From Thermofilaceae archaeon (lineage in GTDB: Archaea > Thermoproteota > Thermoprotei > Thermofilales > Thermofilaceae), in contig JAVYWK010000043.1 of assembly GCA_038727095.1 (NCBI GenBank), forward strand, positions 1 through 12,715: 12,715 bases of DNA. Direction: 5' to 3'. Every line of letters starts with the position of its first letter. Positions within the stretch are counted from its first letter, which is position 1. The position numbers were made by a program, and so were the translations under genes. Shown in pieces: positions 1-12,715 of the stretch. Below the pieces are notes generated by a model. That model saw nothing but the letters and a program-made list of their open reading frames with translations, was not told where the DNA came from and did not search any database.

Positions 1-1
1 A

Positions 2-94
2 CAGTACGCTGACGTGTGCGCGCTGAACGAGCTGGCCAGAAAGGACTTGCTGGTTCGCACGCCAAGACCACCTTCTGCGAACCCTCTGCCCTAG
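2..94 (+). CDS. Possible 3' end of an upstream CDS (partial, product unknown)
   Basis: Frame 2 is the only + frame open from the window edge (QYADVCALNELARKDLLVRTPRPPSANPLP*, TAG at 92-94). No family is recognisable. Confidence 0.3.
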   Translation, partial: QYADVCALNELARKDLLVRTPRPPSANPLP

Positions 95-142
95 CGACAC
101 CGCAGATACATCCACTCAGTCTTCACGAGTGCGATTCTAGTT

Positions 143-172
143 TAGATACCCCATGGCGGAGGAGGGTATCTA
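143..172. repeat. 9-bp perfect inverted repeat (TAGATACCC-N12-GGGTATCTA), possible hairpin or terminator
   Basis: The arms at 143-151 and 164-172 are exact reverse complements. They lie about 20 nt downstream of the vapC-1 stop (minus strand). Confidence 0.45.
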
Positions 173-191
173 TCTTTCGTAGCTTCCATCT

Positions 192-613
192 CTACTGGAG
201 TTTGGAGATGTGGAGCACGCATCTGCCGTACTCCCTGCCGGCTTTCTTCACGATCTCATCGTCGGCTGTGTACAAGATCGTATCGAGGGTCACGGCTAGT
301 GCCACGTAAGCGGCGTCGTAGATCGTTAAACGGGTCCTGGAGGCGACTTCGACGGTTTTCTCAGCGAGCGGCTTGCTCAGCTGGTGCCGCTCTATCCTGT
401 AGTTCAGAAGCGAGTTTGCAGCCATTTTGAGCTCCTCCTCGGTGAACAGGCGACTCGCTCTCAGAGCGTTGAGTACCTCGAAGAAGAGGAGCTCCGGTGC
501 CGCAACTGTTACCTGCCCGCTTACATGCATGTCCCTGAGCTTCAAAGCTCAGACCACTTCTCCTCGATGAACCACTTCACCACCACACTCGCGTCGCTAA
601 CCACCCTCGCCAT
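192..613 (-). pseudogene. vapC: PIN-domain VapC-type toxin 1, split by a frameshift near 548
   Basis: ATG at 613 gives MARVVSDASVVVKWFIEEKWSEL* (TGA at 544-542). The rest (LKLRDMHVSG...FFEVLNAL...IYDAAY...TADD) continues in the -1 frame to 192. The joined protein has all four PIN acidic positions (D, E, D, D). The ATG overlaps the antitoxin 3' end by 17 nt. Confidence 0.85.
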
Positions 614-839
614 AGCGGCCATCCCTCCATCGTCTCAAGAACTCCGTGCTATCCCATCCCTCAGGCGCCTTCTTGCGGATCCTCTCGTTCAGCAAGACCG
701 CTAGAGCGAGATTCCTCCCTTCCTCCTCCTCTAAAATCCTGACAATAGCCTGTCTTAAAACCTCGCTCCAGTTTACGTGCCTGAGCTTCTCCATCCGCCT
801 CTTCAACTCGTCACTGACCCTAACACTCACCACAGCCAT
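597..839 (-). CDS. vapB: VapB-type antitoxin 1 (ribbon-helix-helix/CopG-like N-terminus), 80 aa
   Basis: MAVVSVRVSDELKRRMEKLRHVNWSEVLRQAI is a typical archaeal RHH antitoxin start. ATG at 839 lies about 23 nt from TTTATA (867-862). It is directly upstream of and overlaps a PIN gene. Confidence 0.85.
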   Translation of the reverse strand: MAVVSVRVSDELKRRMEKLRHVNWSEVLRQAIVRILEEEEGRNLALAVLLNERIRKKAPEGWDSTEFLRRWRDGRYGEGG

Positions 840-851
840 GCAAGGCAAAAG

Positions 852-876
852 TGTAATACAGTATAAATCATACTGT
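852..876 (-). promoter_or_regulatory. TATA box (TTTATA, 867-862) inside an inverted repeat, the likely vapBC-1 operator
   Basis: ACAGTAT-N5-ATACTGT (858-864 / 870-876) plus an overlapping TGTA-A-TACA (852-860). TA operons are typically autorepressed at such sites. Confidence 0.65.
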
Positions 877-1245
877 TGACACGCGAACCCTCCGGTCGTC
901 ACAGCAGACGGGCGGGCACCATTGATAGAGGTGCCCTTACCTCCATGCCCACCTATGGATACTCCCACTACACCTGCACAGTAAGCATTAGCTTCACGGC
1001 TTGATTCGATTTCAGATAGGCCATCGACGAATATGGTACAACCCTCTAAAGAAAGTAAGTCGTATCATTGCCATAGAGAACTTTAGGTTATGTCGGACTG
1101 TGCCCGCGTAGGGGATGCTGTCGATATTATTTCATGACCTAGCGCGTATAGCCTTAAGGCCATCCTTAACTGGTAACATTCGCTGCTCCAGAAAGCCTTG
1201 GCTTAAGCGCCGTCAGACATTTTAAGCAGGCGTCCGTGAGAAGAT

Positions 1246-1746
1246 GTGCCGTTCACACCCTTCCACCTCGGCCCGGTTTTGGGGCTTGGAGTCCCGCTGA
1301 GGAAGTACATCCACCTCCCGACTCTGCTGGTGGCGAGTGTAGTCAATGACGTGGAACCGTTTCTCGTACTCCTGCTGGGCCTCAACTCCCCGTTGCACGG
1401 GCTTTTGCACACGTTTCTCCTAGCGGTGCCCGCCGGCTTCGTGTTAGGGGTCATCATGCTCGCGCTTGAACCCGCGCTCGCTCCACTGCTGAAGGCATTG
1501 CTCCTCGAGCCGAGGGAGGGAGTCGGTCTTCGCGGCTTCCTCCTCGCTGGAGCTATTGGAGCAGCGTTGCACGTGCTGCTGGATGCGCCGCTGTACGGTG
1601 ACATTAGGCCTTTCTACCCGCTGATCGTAAACCCTCTATACAATCCATCACTCACCAGGGGCGTGTACGCGCTTTGCATCGGACTCGGCCTCCTAGGTTT
1701 AATTGAGTATGTAGCTCTCGCAAAAGCCCCTTCATCGACGCGCTGA
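1246..1746 (+). CDS. Membrane-bound metal-dependent hydrolase-like protein (YdjM/DUF457- or DUF4184-like)
   Basis: N-terminal PFTPFH, D-x-E-P, HGLLHT and LHVLLD...DIRPFYP His/Asp motifs lie between hydrophobic segments. The GTG start is about 20 nt after TTTTAAG (1220-1226). Confidence 0.75.
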   Translation: MPFTPFHLGPVLGLGVPLRKYIHLPTLLVASVVNDVEPFLVLLLGLNSPLHGLLHTFLLAVPAGFVLGVIMLALEPALAPLLKALLLEPREGVGLRGFLLAGAIGAALHVLLDAPLYGDIRPFYPLIVNPLYNPSLTRGVYALCIGLGLLGLIEYVALAKAPSSTR

Positions 1747-1828
1747 TAGGTTGGGCTAAACCGGTCTACCTACTGGTCTGATCTATTTCTCTTATCTTAC
1801 CGCAGCAGATTCCTGCTTCCGAACACTG

Positions 1829-1834
1829 TTTTTT
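1829..1834 (+). terminator. Oligo-T tract, probable archaeal terminator of the hydrolase gene
   Basis: T6 run followed by more T-rich sequence about 80 nt after the stop, preceded by a small AGCAG/CTGCT hairpin (1804-1817). Confidence 0.4.
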
Positions 1835-1859
1835 CAATCGGTTTTCTTTGCCATAAAGC

Positions 1860-1878
1860 TTATAATATGGTATTATAA
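1860..1878 (+). promoter_or_regulatory. TATA box within an 8-bp perfect inverted repeat (TTATAATA-TGG-TATTATAA), the likely vapBC-2 operator
   Basis: The arms at 1860-1867 and 1871-1878 are exact reverse complements. The ATGs at 1886 and 1889 follow at leaderless spacing. Confidence 0.7.
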
Positions 1879-1885
1879 TTTGTGC

Positions 1886-2134
1886 ATGATGGTTGAGGTT
1901 GTCGAAGTGGATGCTAACGGCCGTATTTACCTGCCGGCAAGCGTGCGGAGGATCATCCCGTGGAGGCGATTTATTGTGCGTGTAGAGGGCGATAGGATCG
2001 TTCTGACCCCAGTGAGGCCAGCCGTGGAGAAGTACTACGGCGTCGCGGGGAGGGCGAAGTACACTACGGCGGAGGAAATCGATGAGGCGGTGGAGAGTGA
2101 GGCGAGGCGAATACTCGAGGAGGATCTACGTTGA
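1886..2134 (+). CDS. vapB: AbrB/MazE/SpoVT-family antitoxin (VapB-type 2)
   Basis: VEVDANGRIYLPASVRR...VRVEGDRIVLTPV is the swapped-hairpin AbrB signature, followed by an acidic C-terminal helix. It overlaps a PIN gene. The start is ATG 1886 or 1889 rather than TTG 1880. Confidence 0.88.
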   Translation: MMVEVVEVDANGRIYLPASVRRIIPWRRFIVRVEGDRIVLTPVRPAVEKYYGVAGRAKYTTAEEIDEAVESEARRILEEDLR

Positions 2135-2480
2135 TGTGAACGTCCTCTACTACTACCTAACCGCCCACCCAGTGTACGGTGAAATCTCGAAGAGGTACCT
2201 GGAGGAGTACGGCGGCCAGCTGGTCACCTCCTCGTTAACAGCTTGGCTCCTCTACGTGCTCACACGCGTTGAGAACGTAGCATCGATTCTCGACGAGATT
2301 GGGGTAGAGCTCGCACCCTTTGACAGCAGTCTGTTAAAGGAGGCTGCAAGATTGAAGAAGCCAAAGGACTTTGAGGATCGCATTCACTTAGCCACTGCCT
2401 TGCGGCTCGGTGTTGCAACAATACTCTCGAACGACAGGGATTTCGACGGGATACCTAGGATCAGGAGGATCTTTGAGTAG
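2082..2480 (+). CDS. vapC: PIN-domain VapC-type toxin 2
   Basis: PIN motifs IYVDVNVLYY, DFEDRIHLATA and ILSNDRDFD. The start is uncertain (ATG 2082 with GGAGG at 2071-2075, or GTG 2097). Confidence 0.85.
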   Translation: MRRWRVRRGEYSRRIYVDVNVLYYYLTAHPVYGEISKRYLEEYGGQLVTSSLTAWLLYVLTRVENVASILDEIGVELAPFDSSLLKEAARLKKPKDFEDRIHLATALRLGVATILSNDRDFDGIPRIRRIFE

Positions 2481-2544
2481 CGCCTGCGGCAACGCCTGAG
2501 AACGAGTAGTACTACAGGCTGCCTTTTTGGAGAGGAGAAGGGCG

Positions 2545-2699
2545 GCCGGGCGGAAGGGCATGGATCTTGGGTTCTCAACTATGCGTTGTTGGGGCCTCCA
2601 ACACGAGTACGCCCGCGAGCCTGCGCTCGTGGGTTTTCCCGTGCTGGTTGCCTCAACCTCGCATGGTTGAGGCCCAAGGCCCGTGCTCTTCCGCCCGGC
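2545..2699 (+). ncRNA. Unclassified highly structured 155-nt element (long stem plus multibranch head), candidate ncRNA
   Basis: 2545-2585 pairs with 2660-2699 (34 Watson-Crick, 5 G.U, 1 A.C, 1 bulged U when read on +). It encloses hairpins at 2587-2603, 2606-2645 and 2646-2658. It is intergenic between convergent vapC-2 and MFS genes. The strand is inferred from G.U bias only. Confidence 0.6.
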
Positions 2700-2771
2700 A
2701 ATAAAGGGTACGCAGGGAGGGTTAATATTGCTGGTGTTGAATGAAGTAAGTTTCGGGGAGGTTAAACTTCT

Positions 2772-3989
2772 TTAATTCGGCCGTTCTCTCCCTCTTCCTC
2801 CCTTTATTATCTGCCTCACGCTGGCTAGGCCGGCTAGGGGGATCAGTGCAGCTGCTCGTAGGGCTGCGGAGAGGGCTAAGCCGTACCTTACTCCGCTCCA
2901 CCCGCTCGCCTCAACTAGGCGGTCTGTGATTAAGCCCCCGAGCGCTGAGCCTGCAGAAGCCGCCAAGCCTTGAGCCAGGTTGTAGTACGAGAGGTAGCTT
3001 GCCTTCAGCTCGGGTTCCGCGACCTCTATCACGTAGAGCGGGATTACGACTGCGCCGAGAGCGGTGAAGGGGCCTGACAGCGCCTGCCAAATGAAGATCG
3101 GTGCGGGGCTGGGGGAGAGGGCGTAGACGGTGGGGAACATGATGAGGCCCGCCCTGCTGATGAGCGTCAACTTGAGCAGTTTCCCGTTCTGTATCCGCTT
3201 CGCGAGCGCGTACTGGGAGATCGTGGTGGAGGTGGTGGAGAGGAGGTTGAGCAGAGCGAGGTCCGCGACGCTCATGCAGAGGACATACTTCTGGGCCAGC
3301 GGGAAGAGGGGCCAGGCGATGGCCATCGCGAAGGTGTAGAAGCTGTTCGCAGCCGTGAACTTCAGGAAGGCCTTGTTCTCGATCAGCCTCCCGTTGATGG
3401 GCCTGCTGCTCTGCCTAGTTCCTCCCACTTTGATGTGGAGCATCGTTAGCCACGTGGCTGACGCTGCGAGGCTGAGAAGCCCCGAGGCGATGAAGATGAG
3501 GCGGAGCGTTTCAAGGCTGGGGTTGATGGCCATCGTCGCGAGGAAGACGGGTATAGCCGTCAGCTGGGCGGCCAAGTTTAGGTAGCTCAGCACCTCCCCC
3601 CTCTCTCGGCTGTTGTACAGCTCTCCCACGAGCGATGTTAGAGCGAGGCCCGCGACACCCACGGCGACAGCTCTCGCCGTGATGAGGGCGACGAGCGCGT
3701 TGGCATCGACGATGAGGGAGGCGAGGAGCCAGAGGGTGGAGGCGAGCAGGGATGAGGCGAGAAGCAGCTGCACGTGCCTCCCGGTCCTATCGAGCCACCT
3801 CCCCGCCAGCACTTGCGTAACCGTGGGGAGGGAGTTGACGGACATCTGCAGTATGCCTTGAAGCGTGCCTGAACCGCTCAATGAAGCCAGGTAGTAGCCG
3901 AGGTAGGGTGCGGACAAGTTGTCGGCAAGCGAGGCCATTGCTTGCCTTGCCACTAGAACGCTCTTAGTCCTGCGCTCCTTCTCGCTCAC
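2772..3989 (-). CDS. Major facilitator superfamily (MFS) transporter
   Basis: 405 aa with about 12 hydrophobic segments, MFS motif A-like GRWLDRTGR, and ELYNSRERG / EVAEPELKA loop motifs. Confidence 0.9.
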   Translation of the reverse strand: MSEKERRTKSVLVARQAMASLADNLSAPYLGYYLASLSGSGTLQGILQMSVNSLPTVTQVLAGRWLDRTGRHVQLLLASSLLASTLWLLASLIVDANALVALITARAVAVGVAGLALTSLVGELYNSRERGEVLSYLNLAAQLTAIPVFLATMAINPSLETLRLIFIASGLLSLAASATWLTMLHIKVGGTRQSSRPINGRLIENKAFLKFTAANSFYTFAMAIAWPLFPLAQKYVLCMSVADLALLNLLSTTSTTISQYALAKRIQNGKLLKLTLISRAGLIMFPTVYALSPSPAPIFIWQALSGPFTALGAVVIPLYVIEVAEPELKASYLSYYNLAQGLAASAGSALGGLITDRLVEASGWSGVRYGLALSAALRAAALIPLAGLASVRQIIKGGRGRERPN

Positions 3990-4130
3990 AGCCGTGACGG
4001 GGGTCGGTTATTACCGTAAAAACGTTGCTAAACGCAAGAAGGTTTACGCTAGAACACGCTGCGTCGCATGCTCGGCGCGGCGAGCCGCACAGTCTGCCGC
4101 GTACCGGGGTCCTGACGGAGTACCCGCTAC

Positions 4131-5264
4131 CTAGAAGTAAAGGAGCATGTAGAGGCAGGTGATCGCTAGGGCTGCACCAGCTACAGCCTGCAGGTACGCG
4201 AGCTTCCTCTCGCTGAGCTGGTGGCGGAGGAACCAGGAGGACGCTGCGGCGATCGCTGCGAGCGGTGCAACGAAGATCACGTTGTAGAGCGCGAGAAGCG
4301 CCAGCTGCGTACCGAGGTGGGGGACCCTGGAGAGGAGCGCTGCTGAGACGAGGAGGGGGCCGCCGGCGCAGGGTATGAGCGTCACGCTAACCAGCGCCCC
4401 CGTGGCTGCACCGCCGATTACTGCGGCGTACTGCAGGGGTGCGCGCTCCGCCGTGTCTAGAGCCACTTTCAGCAGCCTCCTTGGCACAAGGGAGCGGAGC
4501 CTACCCCGGGCGTTGGCAGCTGCCAGGTAGACTCCGAGCGCGAGACCGGCTGACGCCACCACCTTGAGCAGGACGGGCGAGGCCGTTGAAGCGGCTGTGA
4601 CGAGACCGAGACCGAGCAGATAGTAGCTGATGTACACGGCCGCGATGAACCCGAGCGAGGCGTAGAGCGCCGTCCTCCTGCCGCCCACCGCGGCAACGCC
4701 AAGCAGCATTGTTGCGAAGACGATGAAGGTGCAGGGTTTCACGCTGTCCACCCAGGCTAGAGACACTAGGACGGGTAGAACCTCCGAGACGGTTAAACCG
4801 GGCGGTTGCAACCCCACGCCGGATAGCCGCGCCTCGATAGCCCGCTCCGCCTCCGCTACAGCCTCCCTATCCGTGAGGGCTCTCACCCCCTTCGGCGTGC
4901 TCACGAGAACCTCCCCCCTCCTCCGGGCCTGCTCAACCAGCTCCACCAGCTGCTGCGGTGCATGGTAGTCGACAGCGACCACCACCAGCTTCCCACCGTC
5001 GCAGACGAGCGTGAAGGGGACTAGGGGGGTGTCACCGACCAAACGCGTGTAGAGGTTGTAGAATTCGGCTGCAACCGTCCGGTTCGACAGATCCAGGTAG
5101 ATGATGTAGGCGCCCCGGGCGGCCAGCTCCTGCAGGGCCTCCTTCTGCCTAGCGCAGACAGGGCAGAACTCCTGGCCGTAGAGTATCACAGTCAACTGGG
5201 GTGCCGCGAGCGTGACAGCCAGAACGGCGGGGAGGAACAGGGGGATGACGGCGGCCTTCCTCAC
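4131..5264 (-). CDS. Exported thioredoxin/glutaredoxin-fold domain (CPVC) fused to a CcdA/DsbD-type transmembrane domain
   Basis: Signal peptide, then YGQEFCPVC and a cis-Pro-like VPFT. The C-terminal multi-TM region has the paired membrane cysteines DSVKPC and LIPCAGG, plus LYNVIFVAPL, typical of CcdA/DsbD-beta. Confidence 0.82.
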   Translation of the reverse strand: MRKAAVIPLFLPAVLAVTLAAPQLTVILYGQEFCPVCARQKEALQELAARGAYIIYLDLSNRTVAAEFYNLYTRLVGDTPLVPFTLVCDGGKLVVVAVDYHAPQQLVELVEQARRRGEVLVSTPKGVRALTDREAVAEAERAIEARLSGVGLQPPGLTVSEVLPVLVSLAWVDSVKPCTFIVFATMLLGVAAVGGRRTALYASLGFIAAVYISYYLLGLGLVTAASTASPVLLKVVASAGLALGVYLAAANARGRLRSLVPRRLLKVALDTAERAPLQYAAVIGGAATGALVSVTLIPCAGGPLLVSAALLSRVPHLGTQLALLALYNVIFVAPLAAIAAASSWFLRHQLSERKLAYLQAVAGAALAITCLYMLLYF

Positions 5265-6064
5265 TCTACCACCTTCGTCCAGCGATGGTAGAGGTCGAGC
5301 TTTAAAAGTTGCCGCACGGGGACCGCTCTGCGGGCCTGCTCAACCTCGCCCTTCTCAACGTCGACCTCCGCGAACGCCTCGCTCTCGCCCAGCTCGGCCA
5401 AGGGGCAACCCCAGGGGCTCACCACCACGCTGTGGCCCGTGAAGCTCTCACCCACCTGGTTGGCAGCCACCAGGTAGGCGAGGTTCTCGTGAGCTCTAGC
5501 GGCGGTGAGAGCCCTCCACTGCTCCAGCTTGTAGGGCCCCTTGTACCAGGCGGCTGGTACGAGGAATAGGTCTACGCCCCTCAGCATCATCGCCCTAAAC
5601 ATCTCTGGGAAGCGCAAGTCGAAGCAGACGGCTAGCCCAGCCGTGAACTCGCCGATCCCCGCTACGGCGAGCTCGGAGCCTGGTGAGAAGATCCTGGACT
5701 CCCTGTAGCCGTACGCGTCGAAGAGGTGGATCTTCCTGTACACGGCGGCCACCCTGCCCCGGTCCGCGAGAACTGCAGCGTTGTAGACCCCGTCGCCCTC
5801 CTGCAGGTACATCGTGAAGGCAACGGCAAAACCCCTCTCCCTCGACTTGTCGATCAGGCTGCCCGCGAACTCCCCGTCCAGGGGCTCGGCCAGCGAGCGA
5901 ACGTAGGTGGCCGTCACTCCCTCGCTGCCGACTCCCATCAGGTACTCGGGGAAGACGTTTAGGTCTGCGCTCGACTGGTCGAGCAGCGATAGTGCGCGCT
6001 TCAGGTTCTCCCTCTTGTCGGGCTTCACAGCCACCTGAAAGACGCGGATCCTCATCGAGCGCAC
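5261..6064 (-). CDS. Carbon-nitrogen hydrolase (nitrilase superfamily, Nit1/omega-amidase-like)
   Basis: Catalytic triad motifs VFPE, YRKIHLFD and VCFDLRFPE, plus ARAHEN and GHSVVVSPWG. The start is GTG 6064 or ATG 6055. Its stop overlaps the next start (GTGA at 5264-5261). Confidence 0.92.
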   Translation of the reverse strand: MRSMRIRVFQVAVKPDKRENLKRALSLLDQSSADLNVFPEYLMGVGSEGVTATYVRSLAEPLDGEFAGSLIDKSRERGFAVAFTMYLQEGDGVYNAAVLADRGRVAAVYRKIHLFDAYGYRESRIFSPGSELAVAGIGEFTAGLAVCFDLRFPEMFRAMMLRGVDLFLVPAAWYKGPYKLEQWRALTAARAHENLAYLVAANQVGESFTGHSVVVSPWGCPLAELGESEAFAEVDVEKGEVEQARRAVPVRQLLKLDLYHRWTKVVE

Positions 6065-6065
6065 C

Positions 6066-7049
6066 CTAGACTCTCCGGCTATATCGTTTGCCCGGCAGGC
6101 CCCTCCTAGCGAGCTCGTAGAGCATGCCGGCAGCCATCGTCGAGTAGAAGGCCATGTCGAACAGCGGGTATGCGAGCGAGCGAAGCCCCCTACCCTTAGC
6201 CAGGTAGAGGGCAGCCAAAGCTAGGTAGGCTAGCGGCGGGATCAGGAGGAGGTGGGGTAAGCCGATCACCGCCAGGAGCGCGGCCGACGCGTAGAAGGAG
6301 TAGAGGGCGAGCGCGCCGAGCAGCCCGTAGAGCGCGAGGGGGGCTTTCCTATGCTTCAGGAAAAACATCGTGTGGCCCCGCCCGTAGCTGAAGGCTCTCT
6401 TGAGCATCTTGCCCAACCCTCCCCCGTGGAAGTGCTCCACCCTTATCGTTGGGGACACGTAAACCCTGTAGCCGGCCCTGCAGAGCCTCCAGAGCAGCTC
6501 CACCTCGTCGTAGCCGCCCTTGATCCCCTCGTCGAACGGGTTGCTCAGCAGGACCTCCCGCTTGAACGCCATGTTGTTCCCGTTTGGGACTCTCACCCTG
6601 TGGAAGTTCCGGGCCGTGATCTCCAGCTCCCGCTCATAGATCGTCATCATCGGCCAGAGAGCCTCGTTGTAGTACAGCGCGGTAGTGCTTCCCGATATTT
6701 CCCTCGCGGTCAGGACGGAGCCCCCGACCGCCACAGCGTCGGGGTGCTCCTCGAAGAACCGCCTTACGCTCTCGAGCCAGTCGGGAGGGGCTCTGCAATC
6801 ACCGTCCGTGAAGGCGACGATCTCGCCCCTAGCCGCCCTCAAACCCGCGTTCCTCGCCACGTTGATGCCCGCCGGCGGAACCCTTACGACTCTCACGAAC
6901 GGGTAGCGCGAAGCGATCTCAGGCGTCCGATCGCTCGAGCTGTCCGCAACGATGACCTCGAAGTCCCCCAAAGTTTGGCGGGCTAGCGACTCGAGAAGCT
7001 CCACGATTGTACCCTCGTTGTTCCTCGTCGGAACGACGACGGAGATCAC
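6066..7049 (-). CDS. Family 2 glycosyltransferase with C-terminal membrane helices
   Basis: ISVVVPTRN, EVIVADSSSD, ARNAG, AFTDGD (DxD) and GYDEVEL motifs. The start is trimmed to GTG 7049, about 21 nt from CTTAAAAG. The longer ORF-track start would run antisense through the C/D sRNA. Confidence 0.9.
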   Translation of the reverse strand: MISVVVPTRNNEGTIVELLESLARQTLGDFEVIVADSSSDRTPEIASRYPFVRVVRVPPAGINVARNAGLRAARGEIVAFTDGDCRAPPDWLESVRRFFEEHPDAVAVGGSVLTAREISGSTTALYYNEALWPMMTIYERELEITARNFHRVRVPNGNNMAFKREVLLSNPFDEGIKGGYDEVELLWRLCRAGYRVYVSPTIRVEHFHGGGLGKMLKRAFSYGRGHTMFFLKHRKAPLALYGLLGALALYSFYASAALLAVIGLPHLLLIPPLAYLALAALYLAKGRGLRSLAYPLFDMAFYSTMAAGMLYELARRGLPGKRYSRRV

Positions 7050-7069
7050 ACCCGAGTAAACCCTCAAGG

Positions 7070-7077
7070 CTTTTAAG
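7070..7077. promoter_or_regulatory. TATA-like element, probably bidirectional (GT2 operon on -, C/D sRNA on +)
   Basis: CTTTTAAG lies about 21 nt from the GT2 GTG (7049) and about 23 nt from box C (7100). Confidence 0.55.
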
Positions 7078-7099
7078 TGGACATCGCCCCAATTAGCCA

Positions 7100-7148
7100 G
7101 TGATGAGGGTTTCTGGTTCAGAGGTGTGAAGAGAGCTTGATTGGCTGA
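7100..7148 (+). ncRNA. Archaeal box C/D 2'-O-methylation guide sRNA
   Basis: Box C GTGATGA (7100-7106), 12-nt guide GGGTTTCTGGTT, box D' CAGA (7119-7122), box C' GTGAAGA (7126-7132), 12-nt guide GAGCTTGATTGG, box D CTGA (7145-7148). This is canonical archaeal 12/12 spacing, and the element is intergenic. Confidence 0.9.
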
Positions 7149-7253
7149 TACATCGGGAAAATCCACTTGCCCTCGGCTTTTAACCTGCAGGTGGGTTCAG
7201 GAGCTCCAGCGTTGCTATCGTCGAGTAGCCGTCCTGCTGGGCCTCAATCGCAG

Positions 7254-7829
7254 CTAGCGCCAGTGGGCTGCGACGGCGATGAGAGCGCCCACTGCGATCA
7301 CGACGGCCCCCGCGTACTCGGCTACGGCTACCGACGGCCAGCGGACTGTAGCCTCAACCAGGTAGCCGAGCGGTACTGGAAGGAGGCCTAGCAGGAGGAG
7401 GATTATGCCCGGTGTACGCCTCTTCTCCGCGAGCATTGCGAGGCCGAGCGCTGCTATGGCTAGGAAGGATTGGACGTAGAACCAGGTGGATACGAAGACG
7501 TGCGGCCTCGTCCCACCCGGGTAGACACCGATGAGGGCCAGGAAGATTCCGGCAACGAAGTAGAGGCCGCAGGCGAAGGCGGCACCCCTGCTCCTCGACG
7601 CCAAAAGGAGGCCCAGTGAGTAGAGGCACATCATCGCACCAAGCACAATTAAGCCGTAGTTGTAGATCCACGGGTCCGTAGCCCCCGGTGCACCCAGATC
7701 GCTGAACGCGTGCCTGTAGAAGTCAAACCAGGGGTTTCGCGCCACAGAGGCTAGCACAACCACGTGGAAGGCTGGGAAGGCTAACGGGCCCAGCAGCATC
7801 AGAAATCTCGAGAGATTCCTTGTGTCCAC
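7254..7829 (-). CDS. DUF998-like multi-pass membrane protein
   Basis: NPWFDFYRHAFSDLG, IYNYGLI, FLALIGVYP and HVFVS motifs, with about 6 hydrophobic segments. Confidence 0.8.
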   Translation of the reverse strand: MDTRNLSRFLMLLGPLAFPAFHVVVLASVARNPWFDFYRHAFSDLGAPGATDPWIYNYGLIVLGAMMCLYSLGLLLASRSRGAAFACGLYFVAGIFLALIGVYPGGTRPHVFVSTWFYVQSFLAIAALGLAMLAEKRRTPGIILLLLGLLPVPLGYLVEATVRWPSVAVAEYAGAVVIAVGALIAVAAHWR

Positions 7830-8117
7830 GCCCTCCCGATTCGGGCATGTAAATGAACTTGGCGTTAGGCGAAGCCGCCAGCCTAGACGACGATGGAAAT
7901 GTGGGGTAGAGATGGGGTTCGATCGTATCGTGGCTTTTACGATTCGAGCGGGCCTCGGAGTCGGTGGAGGGCGCTCACCGGTCGCCGACGTGCAACTTCC
8001 TCACGGGCCGGCCTTAACCACCCGCGGTGGCTTATGAAGTTCGCGGGGCCGGATGTCAAGGGTCTCCCGATACGCCTTTACGGTGTTATTCCCAACCCGA
8101 AGACCTAGACGCCTACA

Positions 8118-8447: not shown

Positions 8448-8895
8448 AAGGTTAGCCGTTGACTCGAGTGTTTTTGTCAAGTGGTTCAAGAAGGGTGAGG
8501 AGTATGAGGGTGAGGCTCTACAGCTCTTCGAGGATGCGGTGAGCGGCGGGCTCCAGCTGGTCTGCTCGGAGTGGGCGCTGCTCGAGGTTGCACGCGCCCT
8601 CCGGAAGGCGGGTTTCCCGCCGGATAAGGTGGAGGAGAGCTACCTTCTTCTGAAGGACTTGGTGGGCCTAGGTTCGATCGAGCTGGTCCCCGTGTCGGAG
8701 GTGCTCGATCTAGCGAAAACCCTGGTTGTCGAGTTGAACCTCTACGCTTCGGACGCTGTGCACCTGGCGGCGGCTATAACGCGTTCCGCAGACCTCCTGA
8801 CGGAGGATGCGCACCTCCTGCGCCGCGAGATCATCGAGTACGCGGGAAAGAGGGGGCTCAGGGTTCTCCAGCTCAAGAGTCTGCGTGAAAGCTAG
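8440..8895 (+). CDS. vapC: PIN-domain VapC-type toxin 3, whose expected start codon is ACG (non-canonical start or start-loss pseudogene)
   Basis: The frame of ORF 8539-8895 extends upstream as (T)PERLAVDSSVFVKWFKKGEEYEGEALQLFED, which carries the first PIN Asp. There is no ATG/GTG/TTG between the in-frame TGA at 8365 and 8539. ACG at 8440 follows GAGGAGG. LLEV, ASDAVH and TEDAH motifs are intact. Confidence 0.8.
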   Translation, partial: TPERLAVDSSVFVKWFKKGEEYEGEALQLFEDAVSGGLQLVCSEWALLEVARALRKAGFPPDKVEESYLLLKDLVGLGSIELVPVSEVLDLAKTLVVELNLYASDAVHLAAAITRSADLLTEDAHLLRREIIEYAGKRGLRVLQLKSLRES

Positions 8896-8904
8896 GTTCT
8901 TGAA

Positions 8905-9567
8905 TTGGCGCCCCGCCACTCGCATGTGCTCGGCGAGGAGTTCTTCGAGAGGTTGAGGAGGGCGGTTGAACCCTACTACCGGCACTCCCACCACGACAGG
9001 GATCACGTTGAACGAGTGTACAGGTTGGCTCTCAGGATTGCCAGCGAGCTCGGCGAGCCGGTGGATCTCGACGTTCTGAAGGCTGCAGCACTGCTACACG
9101 ATGTGGCGAGAGCGATGGAGGATGAGGGGCTCGTCGACGACCACGCTAAAGAGGGCGCGGTGATCGCTCGCAGGATCCTCTCCGAGCTCGGCTTCCCCTC
9201 CGATAAGGTGGAGAAGGTCTGCCGATGCATTGAAGCCCACAGGTTCAGGAGCGGGGTTAAGCCGGATAGCATCGAAGCGATGATCCTCCAGGACGCCGAC
9301 CGGCTCGACATGCTGGGGGCTATCGGCGTGGCTCGCGCCTTCGCGAGGGGTGGTTGGGCGAACACCCCGTTCTACGACCCCTCAGTGCCACCGAAGGAGA
9401 GCTACGACGGCCGCTCGGAGACGGTCATCAACCATTTCTACGAGAAGATCCTTAGGATCAAGGATACGCTCAACACGGAGCCCGCGAAGAGGATCGCTGA
9501 GGGCAGGCACAAGTTCGTGGAGGAGTTTATCGAAAGGTTCATGAAAGAGTGGGAGGGAGAGTTGTAG
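8905..9567 (+). CDS. HD-domain metal-dependent phosphohydrolase (YedJ-like)
   Basis: HDRDHVERV, AALLHDV, DHAKEGA, IEAHRF, ILQDADRLDMLGAIGVARAF and HFYEKIL motifs. The start could be GTG 8926. Confidence 0.92.
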   Translation: MAPRHSHVLGEEFFERLRRAVEPYYRHSHHDRDHVERVYRLALRIASELGEPVDLDVLKAAALLHDVARAMEDEGLVDDHAKEGAVIARRILSELGFPSDKVEKVCRCIEAHRFRSGVKPDSIEAMILQDADRLDMLGAIGVARAFARGGWANTPFYDPSVPPKESYDGRSETVINHFYEKILRIKDTLNTEPAKRIAEGRHKFVEEFIERFMKEWEGEL

Positions 9568-9581
9568 CCCCTACACTGTGG

Positions 9582-10874
9582 CTAGCGAACGAGCGTGGCT
9601 CCCGCGCCCGCAAGTTCATCGGCCCGTGCTCGAAGCAGCTCCCTCAAGGCTCTAGCCTCCTTCGGTATTCTGATAGCTACAAGCGTGAAGAACGCGAAGC
9701 ATAGCAGCCAAGTGGATACTCCGATCCAGAGTATCGCTTCGCCCAAGCTCCACCTTGCAGCTAGGTATCCCGCGATAGCGGGGGCGAAGCTGCTCCCAAT
9801 GTTCTCGAAGAAGGCTTGGAAGGAGGCCGCGCTAGAGCGCAGCTCTGGCTCCACAATGTCGCCCCACATCGCTGAAACCTGGGGTCCGGCCTGCGGTATC
9901 ACGAAGGCTGTCGCGATGCCGAAGATGAAGAACTCCCACTCCGATCTGGCCCTCATCGTCAGGAGGATCAGCACGGCTGAGAGGAAGACGATGATGGCCC
10001 CGTAGATCGCCCTCCCCCGGATCGTCCTCCTGTACAGAGCGTCCCCCATATACCCTGCGAATAGGTTCCCGGCGGCCATCATTACCAACCAGGCGACCAT
10101 CGTTACCATGATGGCTTCAGGGCTCATGCCGCGCTCGTTCTGCATGTAAGTTATGATCCAGTACGTTATCGCGGCCCACGGGAACACGCCCCAAAAGCCC
10201 TGAAGGTAGAGGAGCAGGAGGGACTTGTTCCTCGTCAGCTTCACCAAGTCTGAAACTTTAGCCTTAAAGACGTCCTTTGACAGCAGGCCCTTAAGCTCCG
10301 GCTCGCTGCTCCCGCGCGGCACGTCCCTCACGAACAAGTAGAGTAGGAGACCGGTGACGATGCCGATCGAGCCGGTGATGTAAAACGCGTACCTCCAGGA
10401 AAGGCCGGCTGAGACGAGGCTAAGGGAGAGAACGGTGCCTAGAATGGCGCCGAGGGGGCCTGTCGTGTTGAGGATGCCCATGGCTCTGGCCCGACGCTCG
10501 GGTTCAAAGTAGTCGAGGACAAGGCTCGACATGCCCGGTGGAGCAGCGTCATCGACAGCCGTTGAGAGACGGGTTGCGAAGAACTCCGCGAACGACCTTG
10601 ATAGTGCGTTGATGAGCGAGGTGAAACCCCAGACGACTGCAGCCAAGCTGACGAGGAGCCGCCTCGAGTACCTGTCGTAGAGGAAGCCCCAAACGGGGTA
10701 GAGGATCGCTGCTATGAAGCCCGTCAAGGAGAAGACGAGGCCCAGCTCGAAGTACTCCACGTGAAAGTCCTCCATCACTTGCGGCGCGACAGCTGATATC
10801 ACGAAGCGGTCGGCTTGATGGAATAGGAGGAACAGCACGAAGATGGCTAGAACCAGCGCTCTATGCTTCGCCAC
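9582..10874 (-). CDS. Major facilitator superfamily (MFS) transporter
   Basis: 430 aa with about 12 TMs, ADR in TM1, GFLYDRYSRR motif A and DYFEPERRARAMG. TTTTTA lies about 23 nt upstream of the GTG. Confidence 0.92.
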   Translation of the reverse strand: MAKHRALVLAIFVLFLLFHQADRFVISAVAPQVMEDFHVEYFELGLVFSLTGFIAAILYPVWGFLYDRYSRRLLVSLAAVVWGFTSLINALSRSFAEFFATRLSTAVDDAAPPGMSSLVLDYFEPERRARAMGILNTTGPLGAILGTVLSLSLVSAGLSWRYAFYITGSIGIVTGLLLYLFVRDVPRGSSEPELKGLLSKDVFKAKVSDLVKLTRNKSLLLLYLQGFWGVFPWAAITYWIITYMQNERGMSPEAIMVTMVAWLVMMAAGNLFAGYMGDALYRRTIRGRAIYGAIIVFLSAVLILLTMRARSEWEFFIFGIATAFVIPQAGPQVSAMWGDIVEPELRSSAASFQAFFENIGSSFAPAIAGYLAARWSLGEAILWIGVSTWLLCFAFFTLVAIRIPKEARALRELLRARADELAGAGATLVR

Positions 10875-10954
10875 GGCTCGGGTCCTATAACAGCGATAAA
10901 AAGAGTGTCGCCGTAAGAACAGCTAACAGAAAAAGGGTTTACCGTAAAGGTTGT

Positions 10955-11443
10955 TCACTTCCTTTCAGCTAGCATTCTATCGAGCGCGAGGAGGCCGGCG
11001 GGGTGGTCTTTCACGAGCTTTACTCTTGCCAGTAGTTCGCTGGCGTTCTTCTCCTCTTCCACCTGTTCGTCAACGAACCACTTGAGGAAGCTTTCTGCAG
11101 CTTTATCGCCAGCCTGCCTCGCCAAATCCACCATTCTCCAAATCCTCTTCGTATTCTCGACTTCAGCGTTGAGAAAGTCCTCAGCTGCCTCCAGCACGCT
11201 GGCCCACCTTGTCTTCGGCTTCGGGACTTCCTGCAGCTCAACACTCCAACCCCGATCCACCATGAAGCGGTAGAACTTCATCGCGTGCTCAAGCTCCTCA
11301 CGAGCCTGCGCCGTGAAGTAGTGGGCAAAACCGGGTAGCGTAACGCTTTCGAAGTAGGCGGCCATCGATAGGTAAAGGTAAGCGTTCCTCAGCTCCTGGT
11401 TCAACTGCCTATTAAAATCGTTCACCAACTCGAGTTGACTCAT
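10955..11443 (-). CDS. ftn: Non-haem ferritin
   Basis: QLNQEL..AYLYLSMAAYF, QAREELEHAMKF, NAEVEN and FLKWFVDEQVEEE provide the ferroxidase-centre residues of prokaryotic ferritins. TTTAAA lies upstream at 11477-11472. Confidence 0.95.
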   Translation of the reverse strand: MSQLELVNDFNRQLNQELRNAYLYLSMAAYFESVTLPGFAHYFTAQAREELEHAMKFYRFMVDRGWSVELQEVPKPKTRWASVLEAAEDFLNAEVENTKRIWRMVDLARQAGDKAAESFLKWFVDEQVEEEKNASELLARVKLVKDHPAGLLALDRMLAERK

Positions 11444-11478
11444 ACTATCAAAAACCTTATGCCCTCGGCAATTTAAAC

Positions 11479-12570
11479 TTATCCTTCGTTGCCCCCCTCA
11501 CTCGCCGTTTTTACCGCCTTTGCCCTCCTCCTTAGCAGCATAGCTGCTACAGCAGTTATGGCGGCAGCGCCCACCGCTACGGACAGCTCGCGTAGGCCGA
11601 TGCCGTACCCCCCGATGGTTAAGATAATGTCCAGTGTCAGAGCTACCTCCGCGGCCTCCCCCTCGACAACTCTGGCTTCGATCGTGGACGATTTGCCAGC
11701 CTTTGAGGCGGAGAGAGCGTAGCTCCCTGCGGGTAGATCGGCGGTGATGGAGCCGTCGTTTCCCGTTTCCCCGACGAGCTCCACCCTACCTCTAATGAGG
11801 CTAACGCTAGCCTGGGGCAGCGGCCTGTTGAGGAGGTCTTGAACCCTGATGGTGAGCCTGCCAACACCCCCCACCGTCACGCTTGAACCCGGTCTCGCCG
11901 ATACGGTCCTGTTAATGGGGAGGCCCATCCAGTACAGGACGGTAATGTTGGCTTCACCGCAGGCCAGCTGAACGCGGCCGAGAGAGTCCGAAGTGCCGCG
12001 GTACTGCACGCCCCCGGGGCACGCGACCAGCACGTCTGCGGATGCCAACGGCGTCCCGAAGGGCGTCAGCAGCCTCGCTTCCCCTCGCAGCACGGCGCCA
12101 GGAAGCAGGATGACGGCGGGCGGGGGAGCTCTCCGGGTGACAGTTGCGTTTAGTGTCTCGATGAGGCGGCTATCCGTGATCCAGGTTTCATTCCCCCTCG
12201 CGGTGGAGAGGAGTAGGCCGGTGGCGTTGACGGCTACACTGAGGAGGCGGAGGAGCTCTGCGGCATCCCTATCCCCCACCACGGCCAGCTTGGCTGTACC
12301 GTTCACGATGAAGACCGTGAAGGGTACGTAGTACGTGCCCCCGACCAGCGCGCTGTACAAACTCATGTACTCCTCCGTGTCGGTTCGGTTCTCGTTCACG
12401 TCCACGAAGGTTAGGGGGATTCCCATCCTCGTCAGGGTCTCCTTGAGGTGGAGGCAGTGGGGGCATGTGCTCATACCGTACTCAACGGCGCAGACGCTGA
12501 TCGGTGTCGCGACGGCTGCACCTGCAGAAGCTAAGATTAGCAGCAGCGCCGCGATGACTTTGAAGCCCAC
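11479..12570 (-). CDS. Surface-anchored glycoprotein: thioredoxin/glutaredoxin-fold domain (CPHC), two carboxypeptidase-regulatory-like beta domains and a C-terminal TM anchor
   Basis: Signal peptide, YGMSTCPHC, VPFT, repeats GTPLASADV...GTSDSLG and NRPLPQASV...GETGNDG...LPAGSY, a C-terminal hydrophobic helix followed by RRRAK, and seven N-x-T sequons. Confidence 0.75.
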   Translation of the reverse strand: MGFKVIAALLLILASAGAAVATPISVCAVEYGMSTCPHCLHLKETLTRMGIPLTFVDVNENRTDTEEYMSLYSALVGGTYYVPFTVFIVNGTAKLAVVGDRDAAELLRLLSVAVNATGLLLSTARGNETWITDSRLIETLNATVTRRAPPPAVILLPGAVLRGEARLLTPFGTPLASADVLVACPGGVQYRGTSDSLGRVQLACGEANITVLYWMGLPINRTVSARPGSSVTVGGVGRLTIRVQDLLNRPLPQASVSLIRGRVELVGETGNDGSITADLPAGSYALSASKAGKSSTIEARVVEGEAAEVALTLDIILTIGGYGIGLRELSVAVGAAAITAVAAMLLRRRAKAVKTASEGGNEG

Positions 12571-12644
12571 ATCAATCCAGCGTTCACAGCAGCTTTAAGC
12601 CTAACTAACCACCCTCCCGGGAATCGCCGTGCACGCTGGGGCAA

Positions 12645-12658
12645 GCGATTTTTATCGC
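12645..12658 (+). promoter_or_regulatory. TATA box within a short palindrome (GCGAT-TTTT-ATCGC)
   Basis: 5-bp inverted repeat around TTTTTA, about 24 nt before GTG 12679. Confidence 0.45.
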
Positions 12659-12678
12659 AGCACTCCTTTGCTGATCGC

Positions 12679-12715
12679 GTGCAGCCGAGGGAGAGGTGCA
12701 TTCGAGCCATTGAGC
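12679..12715 (+). CDS. 5' end of a partial CDS, possibly uroporphyrinogen decarboxylase/MtaA-CmuA family
   Basis: GTG start giving MQPRERCIRAIE, which resembles the M-x-x-RER-x-x-x-A-I N-terminus of that family. Spacing from the TATA is leaderless. Only 12 codons are visible. Confidence 0.4.
   Translation, partial: MQPRERCIRAIE

Follow-up and report, generated by a model that had tools for sequence, protein, structure and literature searches.

A long hairpin between positions 2545 and 2699 of the window, the 12,715-nt stretch of Thermofilaceae DNA analysed here (assembly G000), is probably the body of a small, stand-alone RNA gene that is restricted to one archaeal family and read from the minus strand. 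Four observations lead to this reading. The element folds into a rod, it is maintained by compensatory change across nine lineages, it carries promoter-like geometry on one side only, and it is restricted to a single family. Its transcription, strand and ends, as described below, are those that the sequence predicts.

The hairpin sits within a 291-nt gap between two convergent genes. Directly upstream on the minus strand is an MFS transporter gene (2772..3989, minus strand; Pfam MFS_1) whose stop codon and the hairpin base are 72 nt apart. From the other side, on the plus strand, come a vapB-like gene (1880-2134; a MazE-like match of 20.7 bits, below the 24.7 cut-off) and a PIN/VapC gene (2082-2480; Pfam PIN at 53 bits, above the cut-off) that ends 64 nt before the hairpin. 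Both are convergent with the putative hairpin gene and are neighbours only, outside its unit. The hairpin body, assigned to 2545..2699 on the minus strand, is a 65-bp unbranched rod closed by a 4-nt loop, a description based on minimum free energy, z-scores, the pair list, covariation and homologs found by covariance models. Folded as the plus strand, the 155 nt reach -121.8 kcal/mol against -63.0 +/- 4.5 kcal/mol for 200 dinucleotide shuffles (z -13.0), and no shuffle was as good; the minus strand of the same interval folds at -106.9 kcal/mol (z -12.0). The base of the helix is GC-clamped (GCCGGGCGG.../...CCGCCCGGC), and all 65 pairs in the window are standard when read on the plus strand. 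An ungapped genome-wide scan for palindromes placed the hairpin among the top four of the genome with a score of 33/40, where anything below the top four is noise (350 sites score 30 or more). Two hot-spring DNA runs gave no strain differences inside 2545-2699 and seven in the other 346 bases covered, a pattern that is only a weak hint of a maintained hairpin.

The original prediction paired 2545-2585 with 2660-2699 to form an outer stem, and the pair list reproduces it exactly over 40 positions, with 34 Watson-Crick and five G.U pairs, an A.C opposition at 2564/2680 and a bulged T2573. The multi-hairpin junction that was proposed to cap this stem does not hold. Its pairs are legal, but the resulting fold is 13.7 kcal/mol worse than the straight rod (-108.1 versus -121.8 kcal/mol). 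Across five aligned lineages the junction-specific pairs are not conserved, being paired in 60% of cases versus 55% in shuffles (36 of 500 shuffles as high) and showing double changes in 4/17 pairs versus 3.2 in shuffles. The inner pairs specific to the rod, taken from the same alignment, are paired in 81% of cases versus 66% in shuffles and have double changes in 8/16 pairs versus 2.8, with none of the 500 shuffles as high in either comparison.

Homologs were traced by several routes. BLAST against 40 relatives and 22 family genomes returned a single ortholog, in G020, at 87% identity. A genome of the same genus as the window, G001, has downstream of its transporter ortholog a hairpin of different sequence whose ends and apex are alike. 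A covariance model, R1, built from these three lineages (window, G020 and G001), found copies in G002 and G014; a second model, R2, built from five lineages, found copies in G011, G003 and G009. The copy in G004 came from a scan for the upstream motif described below combined with the first five hairpin bases and was confirmed by R2 at 33 bits. In total the hairpin occurs in 9 of the 23 genomes of the family, at one or two loci per positive genome, giving ten copies altogether. By genus group the carriers are 5/5 in g1, 2/2 in g6, 1/1 in g8 and 1/8 in g7, with 0/7 in five other genera. All homologs come from one family, mostly from draft genomes, and part of the genomes are incomplete, so that absence from these is not proof of hairpin loss.

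Beyond the family, none of 97 other genomes of the class matched R1 or R2. In a phylum sample of 401 genomes the motif pattern occurred only in family members and at one site in G199 that R2 did not support; the reversed pattern, scanned as a control, matched twice. Eighty viral contigs contain the motif pattern and none of them contains the hairpin. BLAST of 120 class genomes with the G001 unit yielded, as remaining matches, chance similarities in coding DNA. A 17-mer scan of public collections produced two real loci among 45 from metagenomes (L041 and L043), on contigs that repeat the window and G020 hairpin types; none of 32 genome loci was real, nor was the single viral locus.

Within the window's own assembly one hairpin locus was found. 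The end of contig 38 (13745-14831) cuts a glycerol kinase gene and is 99.6% identical to G002:C5, which runs on into a hairpin copy about 420 nt further. As contig 38 ends where the G002 contig continues, the count of one is a lower bound, and a second copy, next to glycerol kinase, is probable for the window organism. G002, listed as another species of the genus, is 99-100% identical to window positions 4804-7424 and 9682-12715, while nothing in its assembly corresponds to window 1-4803.

Identity between the hairpin bodies of different lineages is only 49-59% (86% for the window and G020, the one exception), and in each of the nine the predicted fold is a single rod, with 51-65 or more pairs. 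In a MAFFT alignment of five lineages, 88.0% of paired cells are standard, versus 74.9% with shuffled partners and 32-47% when the partners are slid by one to three columns. Double compensatory changes affect 32/62 pairs in this alignment versus 12.8 +/- 2.7 in shuffles, none of 500 reaching the observed count, and 4-9 pairs when slid by one to three columns. The selection for structure that had been proposed from the window is thus borne out: the element is real and is kept paired by compensatory changes in its homologs, the very pattern that the proposal had named as its check. An alignment of eight lineages, whose middle degrades, shows changes on both sides in 32/47 predicted pairs. Interior alignments of the hairpin are uncertain, and counts across nine lineages overstate independence because the lineages are kin; the covariation figures describe a strong pattern among few related lineages and not a formal probability. 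There is no conserved reading frame, since each is interrupted by stops in at least one lineage and the length differences are not multiples of three.

The strand had originally been read as plus from an excess of G.U pairs. Counting 1x1 mismatches, the window does have eight such oppositions on plus versus three on minus, but over eight lineages the numbers are 43 versus 45. With the asymmetry gone in the homologs and the sole conserved promoter-like architecture on the minus side, plus polarity is not supported. Fold stability is evenly divided, four of the nine lineages being better as plus, four as minus and one equal. The window, G002, G014 and, marginally, G011 are more stable as the plus strand; G009 (-91.4 minus versus -54.4 plus) and G003 (-102.1 versus -90.9), the two members of lowest GC content, prefer the minus strand. 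Scores of R1 and R2 are no test of strand, because each model favours the orientation in which it was built. The apical stem-loop gives hints of the minus strand. It is conserved as CGAGC-GCAG-GCTCG on the window minus strand, with a family consensus YGGGC-N4-GCUYR, and one of its pairs (alignment columns 84/93) is G.U on minus in 7/8 aligned lineages and in G004 too, making 8/9. On the plus strand this conserved pair would read as an A.C mismatch. Over the apical 20 bp of eight lineages, G.U pairs number 22 on minus versus 6 on plus.

A TATA-like box on the minus strand (2722..2729, AATATTAA) occupies positions -30 to -23 relative to the hairpin base. Such an octamer is present on the minus side in 8/9 lineages, 21-22 nt before the first hairpin base, as AATATTAA in the window and as GTTTTATA, ACTTTAAA, TATTTTAA, CTTTTTAA, ACTTTTAC (twice) and TATTTAAC in the others. 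Counts of A/T over the nine lineages run 7, 7, 8, 9, 8, 8 and 7 from -29 to -23 and then fall to 2 and 0 at -22 and -21, and the plus-strand side of the same nine lineages has no A/T peak (2-6/9). As a control from the same genome, 50 tRNA genes predicted by ARAGORN have A/T fractions of 0.78-0.90 at -29 to -26 and of 0.24 at -21, and ATTTTAAG precedes the model start of the SRP RNA gene by 23 nt. The geometry of a stable-RNA gene promoter, in which a TATA-like box lies about 23-30 nt before the RNA 5' end, is therefore found in 8/9 lineages. The 22-nt spacer between box and hairpin base (2700..2721, minus strand) is kept in length (21-22 nt) and not in sequence. Transcription may start at or beside G2699; a T or C precedes the first hairpin G in 8/9 lineages.

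Further upstream lies a second conserved element, at 2746..2755 on the minus strand (-56 to -47), with the consensus CGAAASTTTC, part of the near-palindrome CCGAAAGTTTCGG. The copy in the window is degenerate (CGAAACTTAC). A regular expression for the motif matches at -56 +/-1 in 8/9 lineages, G014 having TGAAAGTTTC there, and CGAAASTTTC or a close variant of it is present in all nine, with its end 46 +/- 1 nt upstream of the hairpin base. Between motif, TATA-like box and hairpin the spacers vary freely in sequence and are fixed in length. In two of the genomes with a copy next to glycerol kinase the motif lies 32-33 nt from the kinase promoter, as read from sequence, and in the third about 20 nt; the motif thus belongs to the hairpin unit, since its distance is constant to the hairpin and not to the kinase promoter. 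We regard it as a candidate regulator-binding site. In G000 the motif occurs nine times versus 4-12 times for scrambled controls, which is chance level for a regulon. The palindrome TCGAAASTTTCGC has two further full copies in G000, on contig 11 near 55847 and on contig 13 near 50242. After the one on contig 11 comes ...TTAAGCAT..., which also stands upstream of the G002 unit; neither site is followed by a hairpin. On the other side of the hairpin, the 3' flank (2529..2544, minus strand; CGCCCTTCTCCTCTCC in the window) begins CGCC(C)TTCT and is pyrimidine-rich, a start that most lineages have in common. In the low-GC G003 the hairpin is immediately followed by CACTTTTT, with a T5 run; in G009 a T4 run lies 10 nt beyond the hairpin. 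This flank is a candidate 3' tail or termination region.

The genes around the ten copies differ. In 4/10 copies (window, G020, G001 contig 2 and G003) the next gene upstream, about 65-72 nt away and co-oriented, encodes a transporter, and a glycerol kinase gene pointing away lies upstream in 3/10 (G001 contig 76, G002 and G004; 662 bits versus a 498 cut-off). Downstream of the hairpin, on the same strand, is an HD-domain gene in G002 and in G001 contig 76. The other neighbours, including those of G014, G011 and G009, comprise an ABC-2 permease, a CAAX-protease-like gene and an unrelated PIN gene, and the flanking genes of G014 and G001 are not homologous. The vapBC pair adjoins 2/10 copies, those of the window and its G020 ortholog, which at 87% identity represent one lineage. 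Elsewhere in the window, a second PIN-domain ORF (8539-8895) is followed at once by an HD-domain ORF (8905-9567). Glycerol kinase does not correlate with the hairpin in occurrence, the enzyme scoring above cut-off in 18/23 family genomes. For the transporter substrate, a phosphoglycerate/organophosphate carrier model gives sub-threshold scores only (19.7-21.5 bits versus 407.75), and the protein has no sequence match in the PDB. A bidirectional terminator was considered and rejected, as the copies in G001 contig 76, G002 and G004 adjoin the start of a glycerol kinase gene pointing away and those in G011 and G009 also have divergent neighbours.

Two genomes suggest how the unit may have moved or been copied. 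G001 carries two copies of a unit comprising motif, TATA box, hairpin and tail (G001:C2:1549-1780, L091, and G001:C76:18813-19044, L095) that are 100% identical over 232 nt within unrelated flanks. Gene conversion or recent duplication would fit this identical pair, and we count the duplicated unit in favour of an RNA gene, as an element that appears to behave like a gene. In the G000/G002 lineage, the copies at the loci equivalent to the G001 pair differ by 41%. The G020 ortholog lies within a 2.4-kb block of about 88% identity that includes the vapBC pair. At L004 13479-16783 of G020, sequences about 88% identical to window 1079-3469 and 6946-7871 abut one another, so that about 3.5 kb (window 3470-6945) is missing. 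This stretch comprises the start of the transporter gene, which is thereby truncated, a 377-aa ORF without a known family, a carbon-nitrogen hydrolase and the greater part of a glycosyltransferase. Other genes common to G020 and the window are 67-83% identical, and G020 is the sole carrier among eight genomes of its genus, which suggests that the block was exchanged between the two lineages. Its hairpin has no TATA box (ATACTGCC), two broken pairs at the helix base and six non-standard pairs on plus. Given the TATA loss, the broken base pairs, the truncated transporter gene, the isolated occurrence in the genus and the block similarity, we infer that the G020 copy was transferred and is decaying. 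Conservation within the block is lowest from the vapC stop to the hairpin (window 2492-2533), a spacer with 40% identity and 14 gap columns versus G020; it also holds two of the seven hot-spring strain differences (2529 and 2533).

Known classes of RNA do not account for the element, in keeping with the original prediction, which had recognised none. No family reached Rfam 15 thresholds in the whole window or at seven homolog loci. A permissive scan of the window aligned the plant models MIR1437, MIR1858 and MIR904 at 56.2, 42.7 and 27.1 bits, far under gathering thresholds of 168, 137 and 80. These models align because they too describe long GC-rich hairpins, a likeness of shape and composition only, and the host here is an archaeon; permissive scans of the low-GC members G009 and G003 gave nothing relevant and no such hits. 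ARAGORN, which may miss multi-intron archaeal tRNAs, found no tRNA in the window, and the unbranched rod has no visible T-loop-like motif. The SRP RNA and RNase P RNA of the genome are on contig 7 (RF01857 at 98.3 bits and RF00373 at 162.3 bits, above their cut-offs), with no match to either in the window. They are encoded by divergent genes 143 nt apart, at 27162-27477 (minus) and 27621-27935 (plus). In the genome G000 the longest other match to the hairpin is 15 nt (E 0.23), offering no antisense target. The result listings and abstract openings returned by full-text literature searches describe no such RNA.

How firmly the stand-alone RNA gene can be preferred depends on how well other readings deal with the same observations, and its main rival is a palindrome that matters as DNA. 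This could be a cruciform or hairpin for a recombinase or replication factor, or a selfish quasi-palindrome whose arms template-switch repair keeps complementary, with the A/T box and motif serving as sites for DNA-acting proteins and not as a promoter. Long quasi-palindromes can stay complementary by templated repair without selection. The symmetry of G.U-type oppositions (45 minus versus 43 plus over eight lineages) is what such a palindrome would give, as is the finding that about half of the lineages fold better on either strand, and the unit is evidently open to copying or conversion, given the identical G001 copies at unrelated sites. What the DNA-level palindrome leaves unexplained is the promoter geometry, with its TATA-like box and motif at fixed distances on one side only as in the tRNA promoters of the genome, and the apical G.U retained on one strand in 8/9 lineages. 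No integrase or transposase was seen beside the examined copies, which number one or two per genome and hold syntenic positions, and the 80 viral contigs with the motif pattern are all devoid of the hairpin. We therefore consider it unlikely. The related notion of a miniature mobile element, one of the candidates named at the outset, has become exceedingly improbable. The hairpin is palindromic, non-coding and intergenic, the G001 pair is identical in different flanks, and the G020 block, about 88% identical versus 67-83% for other shared genes, suggests block transfer. In bacteria, the ERIC, REP and Correia-type MITEs are likewise imperfect intergenic palindromes, of about 130-170 bp, that would fold as long RNA hairpins. 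These, however, occur in tens to hundreds of copies without a promoter of their own, whereas the archaeal hairpin has one or two copies in each of nine genomes and a fixed TATA and motif module. The ends of the G001 232-nt unit, checked by eye, have no visible terminal inverted repeats or target-site duplications; neighbours recur and position is syntenic across several species, and copies that have diverged by 41-51% yet kept their position point to vertical descent. None of the genomes and metagenomes that were searched showed many copies with target duplications.

Two further readings would make the hairpin part of a messenger. As a minus-strand cis-acting element it could stabilise or terminate the transporter mRNA at its 3' end or form a structured 5' leader of a downstream gene, and the four copies that follow a same-strand transporter gene at about 65-72 nt, together with the two followed by a same-strand HD-domain gene, agree with this. 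In three copies, however, no gene of like orientation precedes the hairpin, as the glycerol kinase there faces away; the HD-domain gene apparently has its own A/T box between hairpin and start codon, as read from sequence, and downstream on the window minus strand there is only the convergent vapC. The unit duplicated in G001 consists of motif, TATA box and hairpin with no coding sequence, and we judge a cis-acting role quite improbable. It had also been suggested that the hairpin, which lies 64 nt past the vapC stop codon, is a plus-strand RNA that makes up the 3' end of the vapBC mRNA and either stabilises it or serves VapC as a substrate or decoy, and the window itself agrees in its more stable plus-strand fold (-121.8 versus -106.9 kcal/mol) and its 65/65 standard pairs on plus. 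The homologs do not bear this out. Adjacency to vapBC is confined to two of ten copies of one lineage, the rest lying beside other genes, no part of the shared block is less conserved than the intervening spacer, the plus side lacks a conserved promoter, and three copies have, upstream on plus, the start of a gene that is oriented away from them. A role within the toxin-antitoxin transcript is thus very improbable. The vapBC, cis-acting and mobile-element readings each fit fewer observations.

If the hairpin is a stand-alone RNA gene, as we favour, its expression can be pictured as follows. A regulator would bind the palindrome-like site at about -56 to -47, and the TATA box at -30 to -23 would drive minus-strand transcription from a start at or beside the first hairpin G (window 2699). 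The transcript, of 130-170 nt, would fold as a rod that is blunt and GC-clamped, about 50-70 bp long and topped by the conserved apical stem-loop, and transcription would stop in the short pyrimidine- or T-rich tail. A protein may then recognise the apex and ends of the double-stranded rod, so that the RNA would work by binding or titration of that protein instead of by base-pairing to mRNAs. A bound rod is preferred over an antisense guide because the interior varies, the base, apex (G.U in 8/9) and shape are kept, and the genome holds no complementary target. Protein binding or titration is the most likely mode of action, and it is the weakest step of the model.

The nearest known systems are rod-shaped protein-binding small RNAs of 100-190 nt, such as bacterial 6S RNA, 4.5S/SRP RNA, adenovirus VA RNA and the Y RNAs. 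These have their own promoter, their ends pair into a long imperfect helix, and their sequence drifts while shape, ends and one loop are kept. The archaeal hairpin resembles them in its putative promoter, predicted length, paired ends and drifting sequence. It differs from 6S RNA, which has a large central bubble; the folds of all nine lineages have small internal loops, of at most about 6 nt, and there is no match to a 6S model. Nor does it match helix 8 of SRP RNA, and the SRP RNA of the genome is encoded elsewhere. We know of no described pathway for such an RNA in these archaea.

Our results separate the hairpin from the toxin-antitoxin locus beside which it was noticed and show that a strand inference from the G.U pairs of a single sequence can mislead. 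It is possible, and here we are distinctly doubtful, that the family represents an undescribed class of archaeal regulatory RNA, a near-perfect blunt rod made from a regulator-controlled promoter that binds or titrates a protein, as 6S, CsrB and VA RNA do elsewhere, and that is linked to glycerol or organophosphate metabolism. If this is true, the placement of three copies by glycerol kinase and of four by a transporter that faintly resembles organophosphate carriers would tie the RNA to glycerol or organophosphate use. To our knowledge, hyperthermophilic archaea have yielded few structured RNAs other than the universal ones, the fate of long double-stranded RNA in them is little known, and a classical RNase III/Dicer route is lacking. 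A gene for a 50-70-bp rod, with a recognisable promoter and a candidate operator, would offer a concrete and testable entry point to this biology.
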